Shown in pieces: positions 27,880 to 43,757 of a stretch of DNA of 64,000 nt. The first letter of the stretch is position 1, and each line of letters begins with the position of its first letter. The stretch is from NCBI GenBank assembly GCA_041937175.2, contig CP166615.1, positions 4,448,001 to 4,512,000 on the forward strand, given 5' to 3'. This DNA is from Limnothrix sp. BL-A-16 (GTDB lineage: Bacteria; Cyanobacteriota; Cyanobacteriia; CACIAM-69d). Below the pieces are notes generated by a model, which saw nothing but the letters and a program-made list of their open reading frames with translations, searched no databases and was not told the DNA's origin. The position numbers and the translations under genes are program-made.

Positions 27880-30705
27880 TTGAGCTTGCGATTGCCACTG
27901 CGAGTCATTTTAGTTGTGCCATTTGTGCTGCAAATTCTGACGGCCGTGGGACTCGTTGCTTTCTTTTCCTTTAAAAATGGTCAGCAAGCAGTACGAAACT
28001 TAGCCAGTCAGCTCATGGATAGCACCACCCAGCGAGTTGACTCAGAACTCAAGTCTTATCTGAAACTGCCTAAGCAATTGTTGGATGCCACTGCCAAAGC
28101 CGTCCTGACCAATCAATTAGATCTATCTAATCCACGAGCAAGGGAACTCTATTTTTGGCGGCAGTCCTCCGCATTTGAATCTATTAGCTATATTGGCTAC
28201 TTGTTGCCAGACGGTTCAGCGGCTGGGGCTGGAAGATGGATTAATCCCAAGGAGGTTACTCTGTATGAGTATCATGCCAAAAACAATCTATCTCAAGAAT
28301 ATAGTAGCGATCAGTATGGTCGCCGTTCTCAAGAATTGCAGCGTTATTTTGCCGACCCTCTTGATATTAATCAATCTTATGCAGAAGTTAAATATAGACG
28401 AGGATTCTCTTGGGGAACAGTTTATGAATATGCAGGAAAAAACTTGACTATTAATCCGAATTTATCTTCTGAGGTTGCTCAGGCGATCACTGATTCTAAT
28501 TATTACGTTGCTCTTGGTGCAATTTATCCACTATTTGATAAAAACAATAAAATTTCAGGGATGTTGTCAGTTGACCTGCAATTAGATCATATCAGTAAAT
28601 TTTTGCAGAATCTAAAAATCAGTCCATCTGGTTATATTTTCATTGTTGAACGCAATGGCCAATTAATTGCTAGCTCTGGTCGGCAACTGGTCTTTGCAAA
28701 ATTAGGCGATCAAAAAACACTTCGCTATAGCGTTAACAATATCCCTGACGCAACAATTCAGAACACGGCTCGAAAAGTTCAACAACAACTCGGCAACTTC
28801 CAAGAAATTCATCAGGGTCATACATTCATGACCTCAATTAATCAGCGCCAGCAATTTGTGCAAGTAACCCCCTGGCAGGATCCGGATGGCATCGATTGGC
28901 TCATCATTATCACAGTGCCAGAGTCAGATTTTATGGAGGCCATTGATGCCAACACACGCATGAGCCTATGGCTCTGTTTTGGGACGGCTGTAATCGTCAC
29001 TGTCTTGAGCATCTGCACGGCAAATTGGATCACCAACCCTGTTTTTAGCTTGCAGAGGGCAAGTAACGCGATCGCTAGTGGCAATCTTAATTTACTGATT
29101 AAGGAGAGTAATATTGTTGAGCTTCAAGGCTTGGCGAAATCTTTTAATCAAATGGCAACTCAGCTAAAGCATTCCTTTGAAGTTTTAGAGGATCGCGTGG
29201 CGGAAAGAACTGCGGAATTAGAAGCTGCAAAAATTGCGGCCGATGCAGCCAATCATGCCAAGAGTGAATTTCTGGCAAATATGAGCCATGAACTGCGAAC
29301 GCCACTGAATGGCATCTTAGGCTATGCCCAAATTTTGGCGCGATCGAAAGCGCTCACTGATAAAGATCTACATGGCATTGATGTTATTTATCAATGTGGT
29401 TCTCATTTGCTGACTCTCATTGAGGACATTCTGGATCTGGCTAAAATTGAAGCTCGAAAGCTGGAACTTGACCCAAAACCAGTTCACTTGGAAACTTTCC
29501 TCCAGGGGGTAATTGAAATTTGTCGAGTTCGTGCAGATCAAAAAAATATCGAATTTTACTATCAACCAGACCCTAATCTACCAATAGGAATTTTAGTAGA
29601 TGAAAAACGCTTAAGACAGGTACTCATTAATCTAATTGGTAATGCTATTAAATTTACTGATCATGGTTCCGTTACCTTAATGATTAATCGAGTGGTTTCT
29701 GACTCATCCCATCAGTCTCAGCTTGATTTAATCACTCAAGATCACTGCTGTTTGGAATTTAAAATTATTGATACAGGAATTGGTATTGCACCAAAAGATA
29801 TCCAGAAATTATTCCGATCCTTTGAGCAAGTGGGTGAATCAGGGCGAAAAACAGCAGGCACCGGTTTGGGCCTGGCGATTAGCCAAAAAATCGTCTCCCT
29901 GATGGGTGGAATGATTCAAATTAAGAGCCAACTGGGCGCAGGAAGTCAGTTTTTCTTTCAACTGAATGTTCCCCTGGCGACAGATTGGTTGCAGGAGTCG
30001 GTGCAATCCATGGGTGAAGTGGTGGGTTATCAAGGTCTGCAACGCTCCATTTTGATTGTTGATGACATTCCAGACAATCGAGCTGTTTTGCGGAATTTGT
30101 TGGAGCCAGTTGGCTTTGTAATCATAGAAGCGGATCAAGGACAACAGGCTTTACAGGAATTGGAACGTCAACCACCCGATTTGATCATTACGGATTTGTC
30201 AATGCCTGTAATGGATGGGTTTGAACTGATTCGACAGATCCGTCGTCATCAACAATGGGCTAGCTTAAAGGTCATTGTTTCGTCGGCCTCCGTGTCCCAG
30301 CTCGATCGACAAATGAGTTTAGATGTTGGTGGTGATGATTTTCTGGAAAAGCCCGTCAAGGCCGATCGCCTCTTTAGTCTTCTGGCTCAACATTTGGATG
30401 TGATTTGGCAACTGAAAAAGCAGGATTTAGCGCAGCCTGTGCCACTCGATAGCTCACAAAACCGAATCGCGCCCCCTCTCACGGAATTACAATCCTGGTT
30501 GTATTTGGTGCAGGTCGGTCGTCTTCAAAAGTTGGTCACTGCGGTGGAATCACTGCTGCAAAAATCTGCCACAACCCAAGATGAGCACCTGAATTCCGGT
30601 TCCTATGAGCCTTTTGCGCAAGATGTGCTGCATTTAGCTGAGCGGTTTAAATTAGAAGAGCTTGAAGAAATGATTCAGAATGCGATTGTTAATGCCCAGG
30701 ATTGA
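27880..30705 (+). CDS. Hybrid membrane sensor histidine kinase (TM-Cache-TM-HAMP-HisKA-HATPase-REC)
   Basis: Two TM segments, [15 protein letters not shown]-box, [21 protein letters not shown], receiver IVDD..TDLSMP..KP; TTG start. Confidence 0.92.
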
Positions 30706-31031
30706 TCCCCCGATCGCTACTATTCATAGGGACTAATGGGAATTTTGAACCAAGGCTTTGAAAGCCTCAAAATATCATTGATGAGTAACAATCCGTTAAT
30801 TGATCAAAAGCTTAGAGGAATTGAAGCTATGATCAATGAGCCAAAAATCCATGCATTGACATTTGATGTATCAAAGATAACGTTCAATGTCAAAAATTAT
30901 ACCTGGCTAAATGTGAGTTTGATCAAATTAAAACTTAATTAAAGAAATATAAATTGTAAATTAGGCGCAAATTGACGCTTTGATTAATTATTTTTGATTG
31001 AAAGATCACTGTTGACTGGCTGGGTTGCCTG

Positions 31032-32321
31032 ATGCGAACTATGACGGATCTTGTGTTGATTGTTGATGACACACCTACTAATTTAGATGTGTTGTCTTTG
31101 ACCTTGAGTAATTCAGGATTTGAGGTGGCGATCGCAACGAGTGGTGAACGTGCTTTGCAGCAAGTTGCCAGGTGTTTGCCCAGCCTGATTTTGCTGGATG
31201 TCATGATGCCGGGACTGGATGGATTTGAAACCTGTCGCCGGTTAAAAGAAAATCCTGAAACTGCTCAAGTGCCGGTTATTTTTATGACCGCGCTCACGGA
31301 TATTAAAAGCAAGATGCGTGGGCTGGAAGTTGGAGCCGTTGACTATATTACAAAACCGTTTCACACCAAAGAAGTACTGGCTCGAATTAGAACCCATTTA
31401 AGGCTTTATCATTTAACAGAAAAGTTAGCCCAAGAAGTTGAAAACGCGACCGCTGAGCTACGAGCCTCGCAGATGCAGCTTGTGCAGAGTGAGAAAATGT
31501 CTGCACTGGGAAGCCTCATTGCTGGTGTGGCCCATGAAATCAATAATCCTGTGGGCTGCATTCTCGGAAATATTCAGTTGGCAGAAGATGCGCTAAATGA
31601 TTTATTCAAAGTGATTAGAGGCTATCAACAGGAGCTGAAGGAACCGAGTCTTGAGCTATTGAAATTGCTGGCTCAGATCGATTTGGATTATTTACAGGAA
31701 GATTTGCCAAAGTTGCTGAATTCGATTAAAGGCAGTGGTGAAAGAATTACGACAATTAGTCGTAGTCTGCGAACTTTTTCTAGAATGGGAAGCGATCGCC
31801 CACAGCTTTTTAATGTGCATGATGGTATTGACAGTACATTGATGATTTTGCGCCATCGACTAATTTATAAGAAAGGCCGTCCGGTCATCGAAGTGGTGAC
31901 AGATTATGGCGAAATCCCAGATATTTTGTGTTTTCCAGATCAGTTAAATCAAGTTTTTATGAATATTTTAGCGAATGCCATTGACGCGCTGGATGAAATG
32001 GTCAGTGATTGGCAAGAGGCTAATTCGCTACCAGATGTACTGAAAATTACAATTAGGACTCGGGTTGATGGCGAGTTTTTGTCTATTAAGATTAGTGATA
32101 ACGGCAAGGGAATTCCAGAGAAAATTAAGCCCCGAATCTTTGAGCATTTGTTTACGACGAAGCAAATTGGCAAAGGAACGGGTTTGGGACTGGCGATCGC
32201 CCATCAAATTGTGACTGAAAAGCACCTGGGCACTTTGACGGTGGAGTCTCAAGTGGGGCAAGGTACTGAGTTTGAAATTCGCTTGCCCACTCAGCTAGAC
32301 GTTGAACCTGAGCCTGCTTAA
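31032..32321 (+). CDS. Hybrid response regulator/histidine kinase (REC-HisKA-HATPase)
   Basis: IVDDTPTN, LLDVMMP, TKPF; SEKMSALG..AHEINNP; DNGKG, FTTK..GKGTGLGL. Confidence 0.93.
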   Translation: MRTMTDLVLIVDDTPTNLDVLSLTLSNSGFEVAIATSGERALQQVARCLPSLILLDVMMPGLDGFETCRRLKENPETAQVPVIFMTALTDIKSKMRGLEVGAVDYITKPFHTKEVLARIRTHLRLYHLTEKLAQEVENATAELRASQMQLVQSEKMSALGSLIAGVAHEINNPVGCILGNIQLAEDALNDLFKVIRGYQQELKEPSLELLKLLAQIDLDYLQEDLPKLLNSIKGSGERITTISRSLRTFSRMGSDRPQLFNVHDGIDSTLMILRHRLIYKKGRPVIEVVTDYGEIPDILCFPDQLNQVFMNILANAIDALDEMVSDWQEANSLPDVLKITIRTRVDGEFLSIKISDNGKGIPEKIKPRIFEHLFTTKQIGKGTGLGLAIAHQIVTEKHLGTLTVESQVGQGTEFEIRLPTQLDVEPEPA

Positions 32322-34160: not shown

Positions 34161-35126
34161 TTACCGATTGGCTCCGCTGATTCCTGGCCGGCCGTACTGG
34201 CGCAAAATATCCGCCAGGGTGGGATAGGCCGTTTCCAGGCCAAAGCTGGCCGGCGACCAAACTTGGTCATAGGTAAAGTGCCGGTAGGCCATGCAGAACC
34301 GATCCCAAGGGCCCATCTGAATGTTGAACCAGTCAATTAGCCGATCGGCCAAGCCCACCGACAGGGGAATTTTTAGCCGCGCCGGTCGCCCCTTCAGCAC
34401 CGTGGAGGCAATGTCCACCAGTTCATTGGCCGTGAGGGCCGGCTGACCCAAAACAAAATGGCGCGGCCCCGGTTCCGTCGGTGGATTGAGGGCCAAATGG
34501 GCCACCACCCGGGCAATATCCGCCGCATGGACAAAGTGAAAACTACCGTCCACCTGTAGCCGCCGGATTAAGCTGATGTAGCGCAGGGCTTCCGGCAGGC
34601 CTTTGGTGGGTTCCGAGTAGGGTTTATCGCGATCGCCCCCGAGCACGATCGTCGGATAAACGGCGGTGATTCGATCGGCCAGCGCGCGATCGGTCAATTG
34701 CTGGGTGCATTCCGCCTTGCTGCGAATGTAGTCCGTGCCGAGTTGCAGGGCTTCCGAGAGCAAATGCCCGTCGCGCCCAAGCACGCTAGCCGTGGAGAAA
34801 TACAAAACCTGATCGCAGCGATCGGGAGCCAGCCCATCCATCAGCGCTTGGTTTTGACCCACGTTCACCGCAAAGGTTTCGGGCCCGCCCCAGCAGGTGG
34901 CCGCCAGAATTGCCGTTTGCACCTGTTTCAGGCGATCGGCAAAGCGATCAAGCTCCCGCAAATCCCCTGCCAGCACCTCAATTTGCGGGTGATTTTGCCA
35001 ATCAAATTGCAACTTTTCGGGACTGCGCACCAACAACCACAGGGGGCGATCGGTCAATTGCAACAGGCGATCAACCAAGTAATGGCCCACACAGCCGCTC
35101 GCCCCCGTGATCAAAATCGGCCCCAT
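34161..35126 (-). CDS. NAD(P)-dependent epimerase/dehydratase family oxidoreductase
   Basis: ILITGASGCVG Rossmann motif, YFSTAS, YIRSK catalytic YxxxK-like segment, SFHFVHAADIA. Confidence 0.9.
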   Translation of the reverse strand: MGPILITGASGCVGHYLVDRLLQLTDRPLWLLVRSPEKLQFDWQNHPQIEVLAGDLRELDRFADRLKQVQTAILAATCWGGPETFAVNVGQNQALMDGLAPDRCDQVLYFSTASVLGRDGHLLSEALQLGTDYIRSKAECTQQLTDRALADRITAVYPTIVLGGDRDKPYSEPTKGLPEALRYISLIRRLQVDGSFHFVHAADIARVVAHLALNPPTEPGPRHFVLGQPALTANELVDIASTVLKGRPARLKIPLSVGLADRLIDWFNIQMGPWDRFCMAYRHFTYDQVWSPASFGLETAYPTLADILRQYGRPGISGANR

Positions 35127-35228
35127 ATGGCTTGGTTGCTCCCCGCCCCGATCGGCTTGTGCTGAATCAGATCAAGCAATCTTAACAGACCGCTGTAAAT
35201 CCCTCACAATCGCGACGACACAAGGGCT

Positions 35229-35864
35229 TCAGCAGCCGCAGCGATCGCTCCGCTGGCCCCACCGTTGCCCGCGCCCCGAACCATGGCCCCGGCGATAGCG
35301 ACCTTGGCCACAGCCGCCACCCGCGACGGCCACCATTTCCGCCGATTCTGGCCAATGTTCGGCAGGGCTGGAAGGGGCTAGGTCGATCGTGATCCAGGCG
35401 GTTTCTGGGGTAACGGCGATCGATGGGGATGATTGAACCGGCCCACCCGAAGCCGAGCGATCGGCACAACGTTGGAAAGCCTGCAGGTGATTTTGTTGGG
35501 AAGCCCGCTGCAAATTCAAAAACACCCGCTGCACGTCGGGATAGTTGCGCGTGGCTGCCAGCAACCGCCGATACATTTCAGCATTTTCAATTTCACCTGC
35601 AACCCCCGCTTGGCAGGCCGCCGCGATCGATTCTGGGGAAGTGACCCGTTGGGGCCATTCATCCACAGGAACAGGAATGTTGTATTTCCAGAACAACGGC
35701 AGCAGGGCCCGAATATGTCGTTCTTCGGAAGCCAAAATGTTAACAAAAGGACGGATCGGGCCAAATTTCTGAATGACCAGTCGATAGGTGGCTCGGGCCT
35801 TAAATTCATCATTCAAAGCTTCAATTAATGCCGCAGCCAATACCGCTTGCATTGCAATCTCCAT
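35229..35864 (-). CDS. Ferritin-like four-helix-bundle protein with Gly/Arg/Cys-rich tail
   Basis: EALNDEFKARATY, SEERH (ExxH), GEIENAEMY, RASQQNHL di-metal-type pattern. Confidence 0.75.
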   Translation of the reverse strand: MEIAMQAVLAAALIEALNDEFKARATYRLVIQKFGPIRPFVNILASEERHIRALLPLFWKYNIPVPVDEWPQRVTSPESIAAACQAGVAGEIENAEMYRRLLAATRNYPDVQRVFLNLQRASQQNHLQAFQRCADRSASGGPVQSSPSIAVTPETAWITIDLAPSSPAEHWPESAEMVAVAGGGCGQGRYRRGHGSGRGQRWGQRSDRCGC

Positions 35865-35907
35865 TGATAAAAATTGTTAAATGAATCACCGACATTTTGT
35901 AGAAACA

Positions 35908-35932
35908 AACCTACCCAGAAACTGGGTAGGTT
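35908..35932. terminator. Perfect 11-bp stem hairpin between feoA and the ferritin-like gene
   Basis: AACCTACCCAG-AAA-CTGGGTAGGTT; T-rich continuation on the minus strand. Confidence 0.5.
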
Positions 35933-35978
35933 CAGAGGAAGGCGAATAGGAGTGGGTGCTAAAAATTAGCGATGGGAG

Positions 35979-36209
35979 TTAAGCAGTTTGTTCTGGCGTG
36001 ACAAAAATGCATTGCACCGTTTCCCGATCGAGTGCGGCCCGGGTGCGACCAATGCTGACGATATAGGACGGAAACCGCTGCTCGATCGCAATTTGATTTC
36101 CCGGCAAAATGCCCAGCGCTGTGAGTTTGCGGAGCATGGCATCATCCTGGGTTTCCAAATGGGCAATCCAATGGGGATCGCTCGATCGAATCGTGGATAA
36201 AGCATTCAT
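35979..36209 (-). CDS. feoA: Ferrous iron transport protein A
   Basis: LRKLTALGILPGNQI..QRFPSYIVSIGRTRAALD SH3-like FeoA pattern; downstream of the feoB halves. Confidence 0.9.
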   Translation of the reverse strand: MNALSTIRSSDPHWIAHLETQDDAMLRKLTALGILPGNQIAIEQRFPSYIVSIGRTRAALDRETVQCIFVTPEQTA

Positions 36210-36302
36210 GGCAATCAGTCTCCAGAGGTGAAAAACAGGTTAGGACGAATAGGATTGCTCAGGGTTGAAAAGGTTGATTTTCTATAGCCTAATCGTCCTA
36301 GA

Positions 36303-36389
36303 CAAGGGGCTTAAGCCCCTTGCTTCCCACGAGCCGCTAACGGCAGATCTAGGGCTTCGGTCTAAAGACGACAGGCCCTAAGCCCCTTG
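36303..36389. repeat. REP-like palindrome CAAGGGGCTTAAGCCCCTTG plus a degenerate second copy
   Basis: Perfect 20-bp palindrome at 36303-36322; partial copy CCTAAGCCCCTTG ending at 36389. Confidence 0.6.
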
Positions 36390-36472
36390 CCCCCCGAGAT
36401 CTTGCAATGGCAGGATGCAAGCCTCGGGGATTGGATCATAACCCCTACACCCAGCGTTCAAGCATCACTGCC

Positions 36473-37927
36473 CTAGAGCGCAATATGAAATAGGTTCAAA
36501 CCCCAATTCAAAACATAGCCAACCGCCAAAGCGAAGGGGAAAATAAACAACACCATGAGCGTTGCAGTTTTGACTCCTCGCTCCTTGATGATCATCTGCA
36601 ATTGGGCAATGCAGGGCAAAAACAGCGTCAGCACCACCGCCGAAATCAGCAGTTGATCGCCCGTGAGCTGGCCGCCTTGCTGCAAATCAAACAAACCCGC
36701 AGCACCATAATCCCGCCGGAAGAATCCATAGAGCAAAATGGGTGCGGTTGCTTTAGGCAAACCCAAGCCTAGGGCGATCGGTTCAATGCCGCTAATCAGC
36801 CAATCAAAAATCCCCGTTAAGCGACCCACCCAAATAATGACCGAAGCCCAAATAAACAGCGGCAGAACTTCCCAGAAATACCACTTCATCCGCACCCAGG
36901 TTTTGGTGATCACGTTGCGGATTTTGGGCAAGCGCAAAGGGGGCAGTTCAATATAAAACTGAGCGGCAGAACCGGGCAGGAATTTATCAATTAAAAAGCC
37001 GGCCAGCAGGAAAATACCCACAATCAACCCAGCCCAGGCGACCAAGGCCGCCGGGCGCTGGGCCAAGAGACCCAAAATCACGCCCCATTGGGCTGCGCAG
37101 GGAATGGCCAAGGACAGCAAAAAGGTGGCGATCAGTCGTTCCCGCTTGGTTTCCAGGGTGCGGGTGACAATCGTGGCCATGGTGTCGCAGCCTAGCCCCA
37201 GCACGATCGGGATCACGGCTCGGCCCGAGAGACCGATCGCCTTAAATAGTCGATCGAGCATCAGGGATAAACGAGGCAAATAGCCGCTATCTTCCAGCAA
37301 GGAAAACATTAGAAAATAGGTCGCCACCACCGGCAACACGATCGCCGTGGCATAGCGAATCCCGAGGGTAATAATCCCGTACTCATGGGCAAAGAGATCC
37401 TGCAACGCGGTCCAGGGAATCACTTGCTCCGTGACATGGTTCACAACGGGGTTGATTTGTTCCTCAAAGAAGGTTTCGATCCGATCGACCAGTTCCCCGG
37501 CTCCGAATTCCCCAACGAATTTATAAACCCCCCAATAGAGCACCAACACCAAAATGGGGAAGCCCGAAATGGGGTTCACCGTTAGCTTGTGAATCCATTC
37601 GCCCCAACGGCGCTGGCTGGGGTTCGGTTCTGCTAAGGTGTTTTGTTCGATTACCTGGGCAAATCCTTGGCGGGTCTGGGCAATTTCCAGCGAAAGCGGT
37701 CGGTTGAGTTGGGCTTGGGTTGTGGCGATTAATTGCTCTAGATCCTGTTGTCGATCGCCCGGTAATTGCTCCCACAAATTGGGGTCTTTTTGCAGCAACA
37801 ACAGGGCAAAGCTGCGGGATGACAAATGGCGATCGGCAAAGTCTTGGCCCCAGCCCGATCGCCACCAAGTTTCAATTTGGGCGATCGCCACTTCGATCGG
37901 CTCTAAATATTGGATTGTTAGACTCAT
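36473..37927 (-). CDS. feoB: FeoB membrane (gate/nucleoside-recognition) half
   Basis: LLEDSGYLPR, GLGCDTMA, IPCAAQ, ELPP.RLP, FLPCIA; many TM helices; no GTPase domain. Confidence 0.9.
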   Translation of the reverse strand: MSLTIQYLEPIEVAIAQIETWWRSGWGQDFADRHLSSRSFALLLLQKDPNLWEQLPGDRQQDLEQLIATTQAQLNRPLSLEIAQTRQGFAQVIEQNTLAEPNPSQRRWGEWIHKLTVNPISGFPILVLVLYWGVYKFVGEFGAGELVDRIETFFEEQINPVVNHVTEQVIPWTALQDLFAHEYGIITLGIRYATAIVLPVVATYFLMFSLLEDSGYLPRLSLMLDRLFKAIGLSGRAVIPIVLGLGCDTMATIVTRTLETKRERLIATFLLSLAIPCAAQWGVILGLLAQRPAALVAWAGLIVGIFLLAGFLIDKFLPGSAAQFYIELPPLRLPKIRNVITKTWVRMKWYFWEVLPLFIWASVIIWVGRLTGIFDWLISGIEPIALGLGLPKATAPILLYGFFRRDYGAAGLFDLQQGGQLTGDQLLISAVVLTLFLPCIAQLQMIIKERGVKTATLMVLFIFPFALAVGYVLNWGLNLFHIAL

Positions 37928-37995
37928 TTCTGTTTTCTATTGGCCTGCTCCTGGGCGGCCTTGATAGTTCAGCAATCGTTCAGCGATGGCACGCT

Positions 37996-38625
37996 CTAGC
38001 CCACCGCTGCCAAAACTGGGGCTGGGGCGCTGGCTAGGCGATCGGCCAGGGCTTCTCGCAATTGATCCACGCCCCAATTGCGGGCCGCCGCCATTAGCAC
38101 CACCGGCACGCCCAACTTTTCGATTAGGGCTTCCCGATCGATGGTCAGGCCCCAACGCTGGGCCTCGTCCATCATGTTCACCGCCACAATCACGGGCAGC
38201 TCTGCTTCTAGCAACTGCACCGTTAGCGCCAACATGCGCCCTAAATTCTTGGCATCCAGCACATGGACGATCGCCCCAAAGGGTTCCGACATCAGTAAGT
38301 CCCGCGCTACCCGTTCCTCTTCACTGATCGGCAGCAGGGAATACATCCCCGGCGTATCAATCACGCTGACGGCGCGATCGTCCAGGGTCATGGCCCCGCG
38401 AGTCACTTCCACCGTTGTGCCGGGATAGTTAGACACCGTGACGTAAGTGCCAGTCAGGGCATGGAACAGGACGGATTTGCCCACATTCGGCATTCCCACC
38501 AGGGCAATTTGCGGCCCGCTTGGTTCGATCGGGGGCCGGTTGAAGTTTTCACCAAAAGGCAACCACCGTAGCGATCGCTTAGATCCACAACTTCCGTTGT
38601 TTTGATGGCACTGATGACAATCCAT
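37996..38625 (-). CDS. FeoB N-terminal GTPase domain as a stand-alone protein
   Basis: G1 GMPNVGKS, G2 NYPGTT, G3 DTPG, G4 NMMDE; N-terminal CHQC..CG extension; start chosen at MDCHQC. Confidence 0.9.
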   Translation of the reverse strand: MDCHQCHQNNGSCGSKRSLRWLPFGENFNRPPIEPSGPQIALVGMPNVGKSVLFHALTGTYVTVSNYPGTTVEVTRGAMTLDDRAVSVIDTPGMYSLLPISEEERVARDLLMSEPFGAIVHVLDAKNLGRMLALTVQLLEAELPVIVAVNMMDEAQRWGLTIDREALIEKLGVPVVLMAAARNWGVDQLREALADRLASAPAPVLAAVG

Positions 38626-39108
38626 GACCCAACTCTCCCTGGCAATCTTGCCGGGCAACGTAATTTCAAGACGCTCTTTCAAGACGCTATCCCAAAGTGC
38701 TCAAACCCAAGTGCTCAAACACCTGCAAGCAGCCAATGCCAACGCCAGCCCCGGCCTGAGAGCATTCTGAGACGGTCGCTCTCATTTTAGGAGTGGCAGG
38801 ATAGCTTACTGGAAATCTGCAAGACTTTCTCAATAATCCTGATTGTAGTTCTTGAGCGATTTAGAGTCTAGAGAACTGGTGCTGGGGTGGGCCGATCTGC
38901 CCTGATCTGTGCTGAAATTTGGGGAGCGGCCGGGCCAATCTGGAAAGTGCAAACCGGAATCGACAAGCTCAAGAAATTCAGAATTTTCAATAATTGCAGC
39001 GATTGGGTGGGTATTGGAAATAGTGGAAATTTCACCCGTCGCAAACAAACCATGGGGGGGCAAATTCTGTAATTTTGGCAATTAGCCTCTGGGGAGCAAT
39101 GCCACTCT

Positions 39109-39149
39109 ATTAAGAAAAATCAGCAATTTTATTGAAAATATCCGTCTAT
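39109..39149. promoter_or_regulatory. Possible Fur-like AT-rich boxes in the divergent feo/ATPase promoter region
   Basis: ATTAAGAAAAATCAGCAAT and ATTGAAAATATCCGTCTAT loosely resemble ATTGAGAAT-N-ATTCTCAAT; another weak match at 38816-38834; degenerate. Confidence 0.25.
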
Positions 39150-39311
39150 TGCACTTACACTGCTAATGAGTTTGGACAATTCTGTCCCTCCAAAAGCTTT
39201 TCCCCTAAGATCCTTGAAGCCGCTGCGCCCCTGGGGGCTTGTCCCGCTGGGTCGTGGGCCACTGGCTGGGATTGTTTGTGCCCCCCATCCTTGTTATGGG
39301 GAACTAAAGCC

Positions 39312-40184
39312 ATGAGTCATTCCTCAAACCCCAATCGCGAGCCATCCACAACCCCTGAGCCGCAACCATTGGCTAATTCAGGGTTGGACTCGGCCGCTGA
39401 GGTCTCTCCAATCGCCCCAGCCTTCCAGGAGCAGCCCCCCGAGTCCGATCGACTGGCGATCAATACTTCCTCTGCCCCTCCTCAATCCCAACCTGTGAAC
39501 TCTGATTCTGATCTGGCCGAAACGGCAACGGGTGCTTTAGCGCAATCCACCCCATCCGGCGCGATCGAGCCGGGCCCTGATTCTGCGTTAAGCAACCTCA
39601 CCCTGTCCGCCCAACTGGGGCAATGGTTGCAGGAATACGGGGAAATTACGACGATTTTGCCGGTGTTGGCGGGCTTGTTTGTCACAACCCGGTTTCAACT
39701 GCGCGGTTCGCGGGCCCTGTTGACCAACCTGGCGATCGCGGCGGTGGTGCGCCAAGTCATTCTGTACTTCAAACAGCAGGCCAATAGCTCGGCGGGAACG
39801 TTGGCGATGGTGACTGCGGGGGCGGCTTTGGCTACGGTGGCCACAACGTCGGCCCCCAACAACCAATCCGCAGCCTCTGCCCAAACAAGTCCCATTTCCC
39901 TCACTGAACTGGGCAGTAATTTGGGCATTGGTTTGGGTTGCGAAGATTGCACGATCGTCCATTCCGTGCCAGGGCGGATCCGGTTGCGGATCGATCGCCT
40001 CCGCACCGATCGCGCCTATGGCAAGCGGCTGGAAACCTTGCTGAAGGATGAACCGATCGTGTTGGGCACGCGGATTAATCAGGCGGCGGCCTCCTTGGCG
40101 ATTCAATACGACTCCACGGGCCTCTCGGATCTGGAGTTGGGGCTGCGATTGTTGCAGGTGTTGAATCGCGCCAACCAGGATTAG
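39312..40184 (+). CDS. Membrane protein with C-terminal HMA2-like domain (FezC-like candidate)
   Basis: Disordered N-terminus, hydrophobic ILPVLAGLFV/LLTNLAIAAVV segment, IVHSVPGRIRLRI..L...RINQAAASLAIQYD HMA2-like motif. Confidence 0.75.
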   Translation: MSHSSNPNREPSTTPEPQPLANSGLDSAAEVSPIAPAFQEQPPESDRLAINTSSAPPQSQPVNSDSDLAETATGALAQSTPSGAIEPGPDSALSNLTLSAQLGQWLQEYGEITTILPVLAGLFVTTRFQLRGSRALLTNLAIAAVVRQVILYFKQQANSSAGTLAMVTAGAALATVATTSAPNNQSAASAQTSPISLTELGSNLGIGLGCEDCTIVHSVPGRIRLRIDRLRTDRAYGKRLETLLKDEPIVLGTRINQAAASLAIQYDSTGLSDLELGLRLLQVLNRANQD

Positions 40185-40212
40185 CCACCATCAGGATTTC
40201 AGCGAAAAGGGC

Positions 40213-42489
40213 ATGGCAATGGCAAACATGGGGCAGACCGTGGCGGACGATCGCACCTGGCGCTGGGAACGACCGGCGGCCTGGACCCATTGGGAATTGA
40301 TCCATTGGCAGCCGGGCCGGGTGCGGGTGCGTTGGTGGCCGGCGCGGTCTTCGGCCTTGGCGGTGGAACGGTTGGAAGCGGCCCTAGCGGCGCGATCGGA
40401 CGTGGCGGCGGTGCGGGTGGTGCGGGCGGCCGCTTCGGTGACGATTGTGTATCACGATCGCCAATTACCGATGGCCGGCCTGCGATTGCGCTTGGATGAC
40501 TGGTTGGCCCTGGCTTGGCCCGATCGGGCCCTGCTGTTGCAACCGGCCCCAGACCTGCCAGCTCCTGCCACGGTCGGGGCCCCGGCGGAAACGGCGGAGG
40601 ACGAGGACGAGGACGAGGAAGAAGCCTCCTTGCCCCAAACCCTAACGGCCTTGGCCTTGGCGGGCTTGGCCCGGTGGCGGCCCCTGTTGCCGTTGCGGGT
40701 GTTGGCGACGGTGGCCCTGTTGCGGGCCGTTTGGCCCGTGGCCCAGCGGGCCTGGCAAAGCGTGACAGTCGATCGCCGCTTGAATATTGACTGCATGGAT
40801 CTGTTGGCGATCGGCCTCAGCAGCAGCGGCGGATCCTTGGTGGTTCCGTCCATGGTGTTGACCCTGCACGCCTTGGGGGATGCGATTCGCGATCGCACCG
40901 CTCGGGCCACGGCTCTGCGAACGGCTAACCTGTCCGACGCGATCGGGCGGTTTGCTTGGGTAAAAATGAACGACGGGCCGCCCCAACGAATTCCCAGTGA
41001 CCAGCTCCAGGTGGGCGATTTGGTGGTGGTTTATCCCGGTGAGCAAATTCCCGCCGATGGGCCGGTGCTGTCTGGGGAAGCCACGATCGATGAAAAAAGC
41101 CTGACCGGGGAACCCTTGCCGGTGGCCGCCAGTGCGGGCCGTTGGGTTCATGCTTCAACGTTGGTGCGATCGGGGCAAATTTACCTGCGTGCGGAACGGG
41201 TGGGCAACCAAACTCGCGCCGCCGCCAGCTTGGCCCTGTTGGAACAGGCCCCGGTCTATGACACCCGGATGGCCAACTATGCCGAACGGCTGGCCGACCG
41301 GGCGATCGGCCCGGCCTTGATTTTGGCCCTGGTGGTGCTGATTGCCACCCGCGATCCGGCCCGGGCGGCGGCGATTCTGACCCTGGACTTTGTGACCGGC
41401 ATTCGGCTATCGATTCCCACGGCGTTCCTGGGAGCCTTGAACCACACCACCCGTCACGGTGTGTTGGTGCGCAGTGGGCGAACCCTGGAACAGTTGGCGG
41501 CGATCGATACGGTGGTGTTCGACAAAACGGGCACCCTGACCCAGGGCGACATCGTTTTAGAGCAGGTGTTGCCGGCCCAGCCGGACATCACCTCCGATCA
41601 GCTCCTGCAATTGGCCGCTTCGGCGGAGCAGCGGCTCACCCATCCGGTGGCCGAGGCGATCGTCCGGGCAGCGGCCGATCGGGGCCTGACCCTGAGCGAT
41701 CGGGGCGAATGGAACTATGAAGTGGGCTTGGGGGTGCGGGCCCAAGTGGCGGCCAGCGATGTGCTGGTGGGCAGTGCGCGGTTTTTGATTCAACAGGGTG
41801 TGACGGGGTTGGGCGAATGGCTGACCACCCTGGATCAGCAGGCCAGCAGCCAACCCTCGATCGCCCAGCCTTCAATCTATGTGGCCGTGGATGGCCGGTT
41901 CATGGGGGAATTGCGCTACACCGACCCCCTGCGACCCGAAAGCGCCGCCCTGGTGCAAACCCTGCAAACGGAATTGGGGTTGGATGTGCGGCTGTTGACC
42001 GGCGATACGCCCGCCCGCGCAGCCCAGGTGGCGCGGGCCCTGGAAATTCCCACTGATCGGGTCTATGCGGAAGCCTTTCCCGATCGCAAAGCCACGATCA
42101 TTCGCGACCTGCGGCGATCGGGGCGCACCGTGGCCTTTGTGGGCGATGGCCTCAACGACTCCGTGGCCCTGGCCTATGCGGATGTGTCCATTTCCTTTGA
42201 GCAGGGGTCGGAAATTGCCCGCGAAACCGCCGATGTGGTGTTGATGAATAACCATTTGCTGGATCTGCTGGAGGTGTTAACCATCGCCCGCCAAACCCAA
42301 GGATTGATTGAACAAAACACCGCTTTGGTGGTGCTACCCAACCTGATTGCTTTGGGCCTGGCCACCACCCGCGGCCTCAGCCCCCCGATCGCCACTGCCA
42401 TCCACAACGGCTCCGCGATCGCCGCCGGCCTCAACAGTTTGCGCCCCCTGATTCAGCACCACTTTTTTGAGCGGCCCCGCGATCGCTAG
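40213..42489 (+). CDS. Heavy-metal P1B-type ATPase, Cys-less (P1B-6/FezB-like candidate)
   Basis: LTGE, DKTGTLT, HP, LTGD, GDGLND; N-terminal HWQPGRVRVR HMA2-like domain; DFVTGIRLSIP in place of CPC; C-terminal HNGS..LNSLR. Confidence 0.9.
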   Translation: MAMANMGQTVADDRTWRWERPAAWTHWELIHWQPGRVRVRWWPARSSALAVERLEAALAARSDVAAVRVVRAAASVTIVYHDRQLPMAGLRLRLDDWLALAWPDRALLLQPAPDLPAPATVGAPAETAEDEDEDEEEASLPQTLTALALAGLARWRPLLPLRVLATVALLRAVWPVAQRAWQSVTVDRRLNIDCMDLLAIGLSSSGGSLVVPSMVLTLHALGDAIRDRTARATALRTANLSDAIGRFAWVKMNDGPPQRIPSDQLQVGDLVVVYPGEQIPADGPVLSGEATIDEKSLTGEPLPVAASAGRWVHASTLVRSGQIYLRAERVGNQTRAAASLALLEQAPVYDTRMANYAERLADRAIGPALILALVVLIATRDPARAAAILTLDFVTGIRLSIPTAFLGALNHTTRHGVLVRSGRTLEQLAAIDTVVFDKTGTLTQGDIVLEQVLPAQPDITSDQLLQLAASAEQRLTHPVAEAIVRAAADRGLTLSDRGEWNYEVGLGVRAQVAASDVLVGSARFLIQQGVTGLGEWLTTLDQQASSQPSIAQPSIYVAVDGRFMGELRYTDPLRPESAALVQTLQTELGLDVRLLTGDTPARAAQVARALEIPTDRVYAEAFPDRKATIIRDLRRSGRTVAFVGDGLNDSVALAYADVSISFEQGSEIARETADVVLMNNHLLDLLEVLTIARQTQGLIEQNTALVVLPNLIALGLATTRGLSPPIATAIHNGSAIAAGLNSLRPLIQHHFFERPRDR

Positions 42490-42584
42490 CCTTCCCTGGC
42501 TGCCCACCGCTCGCCCCTGTTCACCCCGCCGTTCACCCCGTTTTCACTGCCTCGATTTGCAAACCCCTCACCCCCTTCAGACCC

Positions 42585-42917
42585 ATGGCTTGGATTCATC
42601 TGGATAAATCCGTTGTCACCTTTCACATCAAGGAAATGATTGAGGATGGCTGTCAACAGGACTTGACTGCCTTGCTGGGGTTGGGGGCCGTGCTGGTGGG
42701 GCCCGTGGTGGCGCGATCGCTCCTGCAATCCTTGCACCAGCGCCAACGCCCGATCTCCCTGAGCGATTGGATTACCCAAGCCCAACAAACGGCCCCCGCT
42801 CCCACCTTGCGCCTGGCTCCCGCGGCCCAAAACCAACGCCCCAACCGCGCAATGGCAATTGGGGCTTCTCAGCAGGATTCAGTTCAGGGCACAGCACAAA
42901 CCAACAACGCCGCCTAG
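42585..42917 (+). CDS. Small hydrophobic protein, DUF5132-like (Gly-rich TM segment)
   Basis: ALLGLGAVLVGPVV hydrophobic patch followed by amphipathic LSDWITQAQ; directly downstream of the ATPase. Confidence 0.55.
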   Translation: MAWIHLDKSVVTFHIKEMIEDGCQQDLTALLGLGAVLVGPVVARSLLQSLHQRQRPISLSDWITQAQQTAPAPTLRLAPAAQNQRPNRAMAIGASQQDSVQGTAQTNNAA

Positions 42918-43086
42918 GAGAGCGTTAACCGCTCGATCGGACTCGGCAGGAACACCAAGGAGCTTATTTCCGGGTGTTGTATTTCTGAGCGCTCATTGAA
43001 AGTGCTCATTCTTTGATGACATCGGGACGGAATTGGGCAGTGAGTGGATCGGCTGGCGCATCCAGCCCGATCGCTCACCCTTCCCA

Positions 43087-43440
43087 TTAGACCAGCCGGT
43101 GTTCTTCTTCCGGCGAAGTTGCATTCAACGCCGGGGGCACTTCCGATCCGGGCGCGCTGGCCGTTAAACCCAACGGCACCCGGGCCTCCGCGAGGGCTTC
43201 AGCACGGGCCTCCGCCGCAATATCCGCGATCATTTCGCCGGTTTCCGCGATCGCGGCTTTTGTCTTTTCAAACAACACAACCCCAGTTTTCAACCCTGCC
43301 TTGAGCGCTGGTTTCAACAGAGGCAAAATAATCGGGGCAACCACCACCGTTGCCACACCGGCCAAGGCCACCTTAGCCGCAGGTTCTTGAGCCAAACCGA
43401 TAATGCGCGATCTCAGACGAAGTTCGCCAAGATTCATCAT
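43087..43440 (-). CDS. DUF5132-family small protein (FezA-like candidate)
   Basis: LAGVATVVVAPIILP.LKPALKAGLKTGVVLFEKTKAAIAETGE..ADIAAEARAE pattern. Confidence 0.8.
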   Translation of the reverse strand: MMNLGELRLRSRIIGLAQEPAAKVALAGVATVVVAPIILPLLKPALKAGLKTGVVLFEKTKAAIAETGEMIADIAAEARAEALAEARVPLGLTASAPGSEVPPALNATSPEEEHRLV

Positions 43441-43757
43441 GGGAGTTACTCGCCACCGACGATACATGCCCTAATTCTATCAAGTCTTTCCAAAAGGATT
43501 GGATTAAAACAATCTAGATTTCAGGACAACATCAGTCAGCTTGTTGAATATTTTTTAGAGGATTGTGATCGGAATTTTCAGCTTCAAAATAATTGAAAAA
43601 TTACCCAAAGCAGCCCTGGGATTCGTTTATGAATCCAGATTCCTATAGAGAATTTCTGTCAATTTTCATCCCAACTGATATCCCAATTGTGCTCAGAGAA
43701 CCAAATTTTTTGGCTCCGAGGAGGTTTGCAAAGCCGCAGTTTGCGTGATCAATCAAT

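Follow-up and report, generated by a model that had tools for sequence, protein, structure and literature searches.

Here, we describe a gene cluster at positions 35229-43467 of a 64,000-nucleotide stretch of the genome of the cyanobacterium Limnothrix sp. BL-A-16 (contig CP166615.1, positions 4,448,001 to 4,512,000; the whole stretch is called the window below), in which a P1B-type ATPase and small membrane proteins lie beside Feo iron-uptake genes and a ferritin-like gene. A preliminary description had read the cluster as a ferrosome-like (fez) locus, and all eight open reading frames (ORFs) are indeed at the positions it gave, as the ORF list and Pfam matches confirm; strands and Pfam families also agree with its division into a Feo/ferritin-like side and a divergent pump side. 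The minus strand carries the DUF2202 gene, feoA, and a split feoB, the divergent plus strand carries the genes for an HMA_2 protein, the P1B ATPase, and a small membrane protein, and the DUF5132 gene, on the minus strand, is convergent to these plus-strand genes. The host genome comprises 4.56 Mb in 2 contigs, and its next-best P-type ATPase match reaches 174 bits only; a CP43/IsiA-like gene of the photosystem II family fits a cyanobacterial host. DUF5132 and HMA_2 occur in it in one copy each, both within this locus, and neither family was found in 14 control genomes, Synechococcus elongatus among them.

The pump (758 aa; 40213..42489, plus strand) matches Pfam E1-E2_ATPase and Hydrolase and the heavy-metal P1B family TIGR01525 of NCBIfam (472.6 bits; cut-off 346), remaining under the cut-offs of the Cd and Cu subfamilies. 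Each motif quoted for it in the preliminary description was located, including the catalytic motifs (TGE, DKTGT, HP, and GDGLND), a fourth transmembrane helix (TM4) that reads LDFVTGIRLSIP and contains neither a CPx motif nor any cysteine, the HN motif in TM6 (IHNGSA; H731/N732), and an arginine-rich N-terminus of the HxxPGRxR type (HWQPGRVRVRW, residues 31-41). TM5 contributes N710, and no cysteine is present in any of the transmembrane helices. The head of the protein (its first ~107 residues) has no Pfam match of its own, aligns with the C-terminal HMA_2 domain of the protein encoded upstream (hhalign, 99.4%, E 2.7e-21), and by sequence is a CoBaHMA domain. An AlphaFold2 model (predicted local distance difference test score, 81.4) shows the usual P1B architecture, with eight helices in the membrane, the A, P, and N domains, and a TM4 that is kinked at its aspartate; in the modeled head, strands at residues 27-33 and 36-41 precede the first helix, corresponding to the extra N-terminal strand (beta0) of CoBaHMA. 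The nearest solved folds identified by Foldseek are CopA and ZntA (24-28% identity, E 1e-39 to 5e-31). Although the overall fold is common to the solved P1B ATPases CopA (4bbj, 3rfu, 7r0g), ZntA (4umv, 4umw), and sCoaT (7qbz), the window pump differs from these in lacking a CPC/SPC site as well as any CxxC metal-binding domain. A complex prediction of the full pump with the DUF5132 protein gave scores of 0.01 and 0.00, which say nothing on binding.

In the available part of their study, Grant and Komeili (bioRxiv 10.1101/2020.01.10.902569) define FezB, or P1B-6, by two signatures, D[Y/F]SCA (TM4) and HNxxT (TM6), and report the arginine-rich N-terminal motif also from pumps related to FezB, making it not FezB-specific; an alternative TM6 signature of P1B-6, N-x-HN-x-(S/T), appears in the accessible text of PMC13460109. 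A HMMER search of 1.84 billion representatives with the window pump returned 67,977 matches at E<=0.001, the best 150 of which were used. The resulting tree (FastTree, LG+gamma), rooted on a non-P1B pump of the same genome, holds 164 sequences, namely 123 of at least 640 aa kept from 151 (the query plus 150, with 28 shorter ones dropped) and 41 ORFs added from cyanobacterial and own-genome loci; FezB-type sequences were assigned in it by motif rather than through named references. All 28 FezB-type sequences, defined by D[YF]SCA together with HNxxT, group in a single clade (support 0.991). Its sister group (0.995) is a large clade (0.953) bearing D-x-x-T/S-G in TM4, and the window pump is nested in this sister group, within a set of 19 cyanobacterial sequences (support 1.0) that we term subfamily A. 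The marks of this subfamily are LD[FL]xTG[IV]R (TM4) and HNG[ST]A (TM6), whereas the other members of the large clade mostly have NNGS or SNGS in TM6, and all 18 cyanobacterial orthologues read D[FL][VIM]TG in TM4.

The FezB/P1B-6 identity suggested by the earlier fez reading is thus not borne out, given a TM4 that reads DFVTG, free of cysteine, in place of D[Y/F]SCA and a position in the sister clade. The two groups nevertheless have much in common, including the arginine-rich CoBaHMA head, an invariant TM4 aspartate, and a TM4 lysine or arginine. In the window TM6, which reads HNGSA, H-N-x-S is kept and alanine stands where HNxxT has threonine, and the spacing from N710 to H731 equals that of the FezB alignment (N-x20-HN, TM5 to TM6). 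FezB N-termini match HMA_2 below threshold in 5 of the 9 loci scanned. A FezB-type query against 301 genomes of the phylum found no closer match, its best hit reaching 359 bits at 34% identity and none exceeding 37% among the matches listed, and all 12 of its best places fall on D-x-x-T-G pump loci known from the survey of the pump family. These comparisons support FezB-type pumps as the nearest described relatives of the window ATPase. The same tree, in keeping with the preliminary description, does not group the pump with Cu/Zn/Co exporters; this identity was rejected, as the protein has no CPC/SPC site, does not reach the Cu and Cd cut-offs of NCBIfam, and is placed elsewhere.

Immediately upstream of the pump gene lies a membrane protein with a two-helix hairpin and a C-terminal CoBaHMA domain (39312..40184, plus strand, within an ORF spanning 39132-40184). 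Its Pfam HMA_2 match (33.5 bits; cut-off 30; residues 275-348 of the 39132-40184 ORF), which is repeated in 7/7 orthologues, agrees with the HMA2-like membrane protein proposed earlier at this position, with the start moved, as alignment with six orthologues makes ATG 39312 more likely than TTG 39132. The hydrophobic segments cover residues 112-130 and 135-153. The core conserved among orthologues consists of the hydrophobic hairpin followed by CoBaHMA, and two low-complexity insertions are unique to the window copy. In the pump head, the hallmarks of CoBaHMA, a domain reportedly treated in a 2024 paper by Gaschignard et al., are present, namely the conserved histidine and basic residues (HxxPGRxRxR). 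As a membrane protein with an arginine-rich HMA-like domain, the hairpin protein resembles FezC. The likeness does not extend to domain order, in which the window protein runs from hairpin to CoBaHMA, whereas FezC, in the portion of its description available (bioRxiv 10.1101/2020.01.10.902569), runs in reverse from HMA to two transmembrane helices.

Two small membrane proteins flank the pump gene on its downstream side, both of which had been called DUF5132-like. One of them (126 aa from the first ATG; 43087..43467, minus strand) is a DUF5132 protein by Pfam (PF17195; 44.4 bits, cut-off 25), with a start that orthologues suggest to be nearer 43440; it has one transmembrane helix followed by an amphipathic helix ending in DIAAEARAE, in line with the family pattern (E/D)D(I/M)xAEA(K/R). 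The other (110 aa; 42585..42917, plus strand) is a single-pass membrane protein of no Pfam family, without a match even at E<=10, and its alignment with DUF5132 (hhalign, 89%, E 2.4e-6) points to a distant paralogue of the N-terminal and transmembrane part, leaving the earlier label valid for it only in this looser sense. Orthologues of the small ORF occur in 5 other subfamily-A loci. Both proteins have small-residue motifs in the transmembrane helix, with no strict GxxxG, the motif of the small hydrophobic FezA-like partners in fez clusters, in the window copy. The N-terminus of the small protein follows the pattern H-x8-H-x2-E-x2-E, and the residues M1, H5, K8, V10, H14, E17, and E20, directly before the transmembrane helix (window 42585-42650), are invariant in its family; judging from this pattern, they could form a cytosolic metal-binding face.

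The partners of FezB offer a comparison for these proteins. A search with a FezB-type alignment led to 80 fetched loci, of which 17 top loci were checked and 13 passed a strict TM4 filter; when rescanned, three of the four failures (L060, L068, L074) proved to have a TM4 of the FezB type and HN in TM6, and the fourth (L073) did not. A second P-type ATPase that could represent FezH, and so show whether the window clade is FezH, was not found within ~8 kb in 20 FezB loci (L056-L075). In Firmicutes and Actinobacteria, the gene at the FezA position encodes DUF6110. The DUF5132 profile matches the ORF just upstream of FezB in one Desulfovibrionaceae locus (hmmsearch E 8.6e-4; hhalign 85%, E 6e-6), an ORF that itself matches Pfam DUF6110 at 31 bits and Pfam DUF5132 at E 0.025. 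In a betaproteobacterium, an ORF that precedes FezB matches DUF5132 at E 3e-4, and FeoA and FeoB follow downstream. A Collinsella protein at the FezA position matches both DUF6110 and DUF1490, the PacL family (E 4e-5; 24 bits, below the cut-off of 28.4), whereas the window DUF5132 protein has no DUF1490 match at E<=10. Taken together, these similarities are suggestive of, without firmly establishing, one loose superfamily of pump partners comprising FezA/DUF6110, DUF5132, and PacL/DUF1490.

The uptake genes on the minus strand encode FeoA (76 aa; 35979..36209; Pfam FeoA, 45.2 bits) and a FeoB divided between two ORFs, both parts of which are present: a GTPase half of 228 aa (37996..38682; Pfam FeoB_N, 191 bits; positions 1-151 of TIGR00437) and a membrane half of 484 aa (36473..37927; Pfam Gate, FeoB_C, and FeoB_Cyto; positions 235-594 of TIGR00437). 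The same split is found in 3 other genomes (L040, L045, L053), in which feoA orthologues also adjoin the module. A broken feoB or a frameshift artefact was therefore ruled out.

The ferritin-like gene at the end of the cluster encodes a DUF2202 protein (211 aa; 35229..35864, minus strand; Pfam DUF2202, 23.8 bits, cut-off 22) with a basic Gly/Arg/His C-terminal tail and a cysteine at its end. A basic Gly/Arg/His-rich tail with terminal cysteines occurs in 3/3 orthologues (window 35229-35330; L036 12186-12677; L039 10994-11605). By contrast, the DUF2202 proteins of fez clusters, in the part of Grant and Komeili's account available, have a C-terminal hydrophobic GxxxG motif, which the three cyanobacterial orthologues do not have. 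Contigs from four RNA libraries of three studies (X2, X4, X5, X6) cover 22-28 of the 30 bins of 35000-43600 at 90-99% identity; they are no proof of transcription, gene ranking, or strand, DNA carry-over is possible, and uncovered bins carry no meaning. In contigs of close relatives (X2, X4, X5), position 35160/35167 is joined straight to 35988, skipping the DUF2202 gene, with 130 other letters between in X2. Since these relatives do not have it, the gene is, as far as these contigs indicate, a strain-variable accessory of the module. The host genome also has one PF00210 (ferritin/Dps-type) locus (L173; G000:C1:3700866-3701288), with one TAG inside the matched stretch.

The linkage of pump and Feo genes extends beyond this genome. 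The pump family (E<=1e-80) is present in 36 of the 301 sampled genomes and 29 of the 134 genera of the phylum. Twenty loci of 20 kb each were searched with the window proteins, and the counts for subfamily A include the window. A clear FeoB lies within 9 kb in 9/11 subfamily-A loci, one more having only a FeoB_N fragment and one having none, whereas none of the 10 loci whose pumps all belong to other subfamilies has a Feo gene. Among the 11 subfamily-A loci, a separate HMA_2 hairpin gene is present in 7, DUF5132 in 7, the small ORF in 6, and DUF2202 in 3. All genes can lie on one strand, in the order feoB-DUF5132-HMA2-ATPase-DUF2202-small ORF (L039) or feoBN-feoBTM-feoA-DUF5132-HMA2-ATPase-small ORF (L045). 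The recurrence of this arrangement in other cyanobacteria led us to reject a chance neighborhood of Feo and pump. In addition, six loci (L042, L044, L046, L047, L054, L055) contain paralogous pump subfamilies with DFATG or DFGSG in TM4 and NNGS or SNGS in TM6, accompanied by DUF5132 and longer CoBaHMA-hairpin-CoBaHMA partners and never by Feo, and some cyanobacterial genomes have two or three such pumps in tandem.

The two sides of the locus are separated by a divergent control region of 629 bp (38683..39311) with three cores TTYTCAATAA, at 38827-38836 (+), 38984-38993 (+), and 39129-39138 (-), which match the middle of the FurA consensus of Anabaena, AAATAAATTCTCAATAAAT (PMC4005646). The core has 25 copies genome-wide, three of them within 312 bp of the divergent promoter, and the reversed control pattern has 8. 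Other copies lie 11 nt upstream of the start of a FUR-family gene (L149; G000:C1:3644002-3647011) and 152 nt upstream of a gene for a 356-aa CP43/IsiA-like protein of the photosystem II family (L145; G000:C1:2437475-2440484), both of which are candidate members of the same regulon on the strength of this motif. In four further loci (L036, L041, L053, L054), the module operons are directly preceded by sites that agree with the FurA consensus at 14-15 of its 19 positions, and in 3/4 these are the top site of the 20 kb. The 11-mer ATTTTCAATAA, with at most one mismatch, has 4 matches in the window against 1.1 expected, a number that 4/100 shuffles reach and that is weak alone. Hexamers resembling promoter elements lie over or right next to boxes 1 and 3; sigma-70-like sites (6 found versus 4.0 +/- 2.0 in shuffles) are not in excess. 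From these putative operators, Fur control of the module is likely, which would match the formation of ferrosomes in response to iron limitation, as reported in the accessible text of PMC13463818, and the constitutive ferrosomes of a fur mutant. A 14-nt direct repeat, CCAAAGTGCTCAAA, stands in two tandem copies at 38692-38719, just upstream of the start of the feoB GTPase gene, and one RNA-library contig (X6) has an extra copy, so its number varies between strains.

Available accounts of fez clusters describe several of the same parts. Both systems have a P1B pump with an N-terminal arginine-rich (CoBaHMA) head, a TM4 aspartate and lysine or arginine, and N...HN in TM5/TM6, one or more small single-pass hydrophobic partners, a membrane protein with an arginine-rich HMA-like domain, DUF2202 and FeoA companions, a Feo neighborhood, and likely induction under iron limitation; DUF2202, FeoA-domain proteins, and neighboring Feo/Fur genes are among the fez companions that the available part of bioRxiv 10.1101/2020.01.10.902569 lists. 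They differ in the small partner, which is DUF5132 in the window and DUF6110 in fez clusters, and in that ferrosomes are organelles that have been seen, a fez cluster being characterized as necessary and sufficient for Fe/P granules with a lipid boundary, whereas the window system is known from genes alone. The fez-like character first proposed for the cluster accordingly stands for linkage, partner types, the CoBaHMA head, and the weak but repeated similarity of DUF5132 to proteins at the FezA position, and falls for FezB identity and FezC domain order.

Considering these features together, we see about an even chance that the locus is a Fur-controlled iron module, with parts homologous to fez clusters, that removes from the cytosol the Fe2+ brought in by Feo. 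When iron runs short, the divergent promoters would fire together, FeoA and the split FeoB would import Fe2+, and the cysteine-free P1B ATPase would pump it through a membrane, from the cytosol to the lumen of a closed compartment. Hard O/N ligands would make up the ion site of the pump, probably D392 and T395 (TM4), N710 (TM5), and H731/N732 (TM6). The FezA/PacL-like partners, namely the DUF5132 protein with its small paralogue, and the FezC-like hairpin-CoBaHMA protein may hold and organize the pump in the membrane through the CoBaHMA domains, and the DUF2202 ferritin-like protein could handle iron at the site. Sequestration is preferred to efflux because the pump would be co-expressed with an importer under a starvation signal. 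As the destination, a dedicated ferrosome-like vesicle is our leading guess, a tentative one, with the thylakoid lumen as the main alternative. It is conceivable, if doubtful, that some cyanobacteria more generally build lipid-bounded ferrosome-like iron stores by means of this thiol-free sister of FezB, co-expressed with Feo under Fur.

Several observations weigh against this interpretation. The motif that defines P1B-6 is absent, Fe2+ is a presumed substrate for a pump of the D-x-x-T-G clade, and the predicted hard-ligand site would suit Mn2+, Mg2+, or Ca2+ as well as Fe2+. The known ferrosome hosts, in the portions of the literature available, make these organelles anaerobically, whereas the window host appears to be an oxygenic phototroph, and a literature search returned no report of such granules in cyanobacteria. 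The partner types are not organelle-specific, since the accessible sources also place CoBaHMA and DUF5132 on the flanks of ccyA and cax in Microcystis and PacL-type partners with plasma-membrane efflux pumps. Compared alignment to alignment, DUF5132 and the FezA-position proteins are only weakly similar (hhalign, 43%, E 2.5e-4). With the window queries, the HMA_2 partner, DUF5132, and the small ORF are each detected in only 6-7 of the 11 subfamily-A loci, and DUF2202, with its 3 of 11, is also missing in close relatives. Regarding regulation, 15 of the 22 other cores lie inside ORFs, 5 of the 7 intergenic ones flank genes without an evident iron link, and the window sites match 13 of the 19 positions of the Anabaena FurA 19-mer, a level reached by 9 sites in 20 kb, with the top site elsewhere.

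P1B ATPases are usually exporters, and the pump might instead act at the plasma membrane in an effluxosome-type arrangement, guarding against too much Feo uptake by expelling surplus Fe2+, or Mn2+/Zn2+/Co2+, into the periplasm, with DUF5132 binding the N-terminal domain and stabilizing the pump. The available text of PMC13460109 describes such a system in mycobacteria, in which the Glu/Ala-repeat helix of the small transmembrane protein PacL1 binds and stabilizes the cysteine-free N-terminal domain of CtpC, a P1B-6-like pump. DUF5132 is similarly built, with one transmembrane helix and then a Glu/Ala-rich cytosolic helix ending in AEARAEALAEA, and the Collinsella protein at the FezA position bridges DUF6110 and DUF1490. 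CtpC, however, as far as that text describes it, retains CPC and serves zinc export at the plasma membrane, whereas the window pump has no CPC and its module is linked to iron import instead of metal intoxication. We consider such efflux unlikely, because an operon shared with the importer (L039, L045) and the Fur-box-like cores point to expression during iron shortage, a time at which export would be futile; in addition, no metal-sensing activator is located nearby, and the window partner has no DUF1490 match at the threshold given above.

Should the pump instead supply the thylakoid lumen, iron would be buffered or stored near the photosynthetic apparatus with no need for a dedicated organelle. 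The internal membranes of cyanobacteria could receive a P1B pump, the module stands with Feo and Fur-type signals, and the IsiA-like gene of the same genome has the same box core; the remainder of the case is general reasoning, and thylakoid targeting of the pump is purely conjectural. Homologous FezB modules operate in non-photosynthetic bacteria, where the available sources describe dedicated vesicles, and the restriction of the pump family to 36 of the 301 sampled genomes argues against a core photosynthetic function, which makes this destination distinctly unlikely. Least probable, though in line with a thiol-free ion site, sister subfamilies in cyanobacteria that keep the same partners without Feo, and DUF5132 and CoBaHMA genes that flank and co-vary in expression with ccyA and the Ca2+/H+ exchanger gene cax in Microcystis (accessible text of bioRxiv 10.1101/2024.07.07.602159), is a module for Ca2+, Mg2+, or Mn2+ in biomineral or cation homeostasis, with the Feo neighborhood reflecting shared regulation only, against which stand the TM6 histidine that subfamily A retains like FezB, the restriction of Feo linkage to this subfamily (9/11 versus 0/10 loci), and the iron-related DUF2202 and FeoA. 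The accessory families CoBaHMA and DUF5132 are common to the window and the Microcystis ccyA region (available parts of PMC8890360 and bioRxiv 10.1101/2024.07.07.602159), whose neighbors are calcyanin and the Ca2+/H+ exchanger, connected with amorphous CaCO3 inclusions, whereas those in the window are the P1B pump, Feo, and DUF2202.

Iron limits cyanobacterial growth across much of the ocean and in many lakes, and cyanobacteria are known to store it in protein cages (ferritin, Bfr, and Dps types). If the module does build a lipid-bounded, ferrosome-like iron store, oxygenic phototrophs would gain their first example of iron storage in a membrane-bound compartment, ferrosome biology would reach beyond anaerobes, and a pump-based membrane store switched on together with Feo would add a new layer to the iron economy of phototrophs. 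A CoBaHMA-headed P-type pump, a FezA/DUF5132/PacL partner, and a CoBaHMA hairpin protein would then represent one ancient reusable kit that loads cations into, or organizes pumps on, specialized membrane domains. The locus further provides a natural experiment on P1B ion-site chemistry, with cysteine replaced by Thr-Gly and the Asp, Arg, Asn, and His-Asn residues kept, and it ties together three small-partner families that have been studied separately, FezA/DUF6110, DUF5132, and PacL/DUF1490. In the literature searched, the module is undescribed in cyanobacteria, and the supplementary lists of Grant and Komeili may include its clade among related arginine-rich P1B-ATPases.

Outside the cluster, two stretches of the window have a low G+C content, 12001-16000 (0.49) and 28001-32000 (0.42), compared with mostly 0.53-0.65 in the remainder, and these may be acquired islands.

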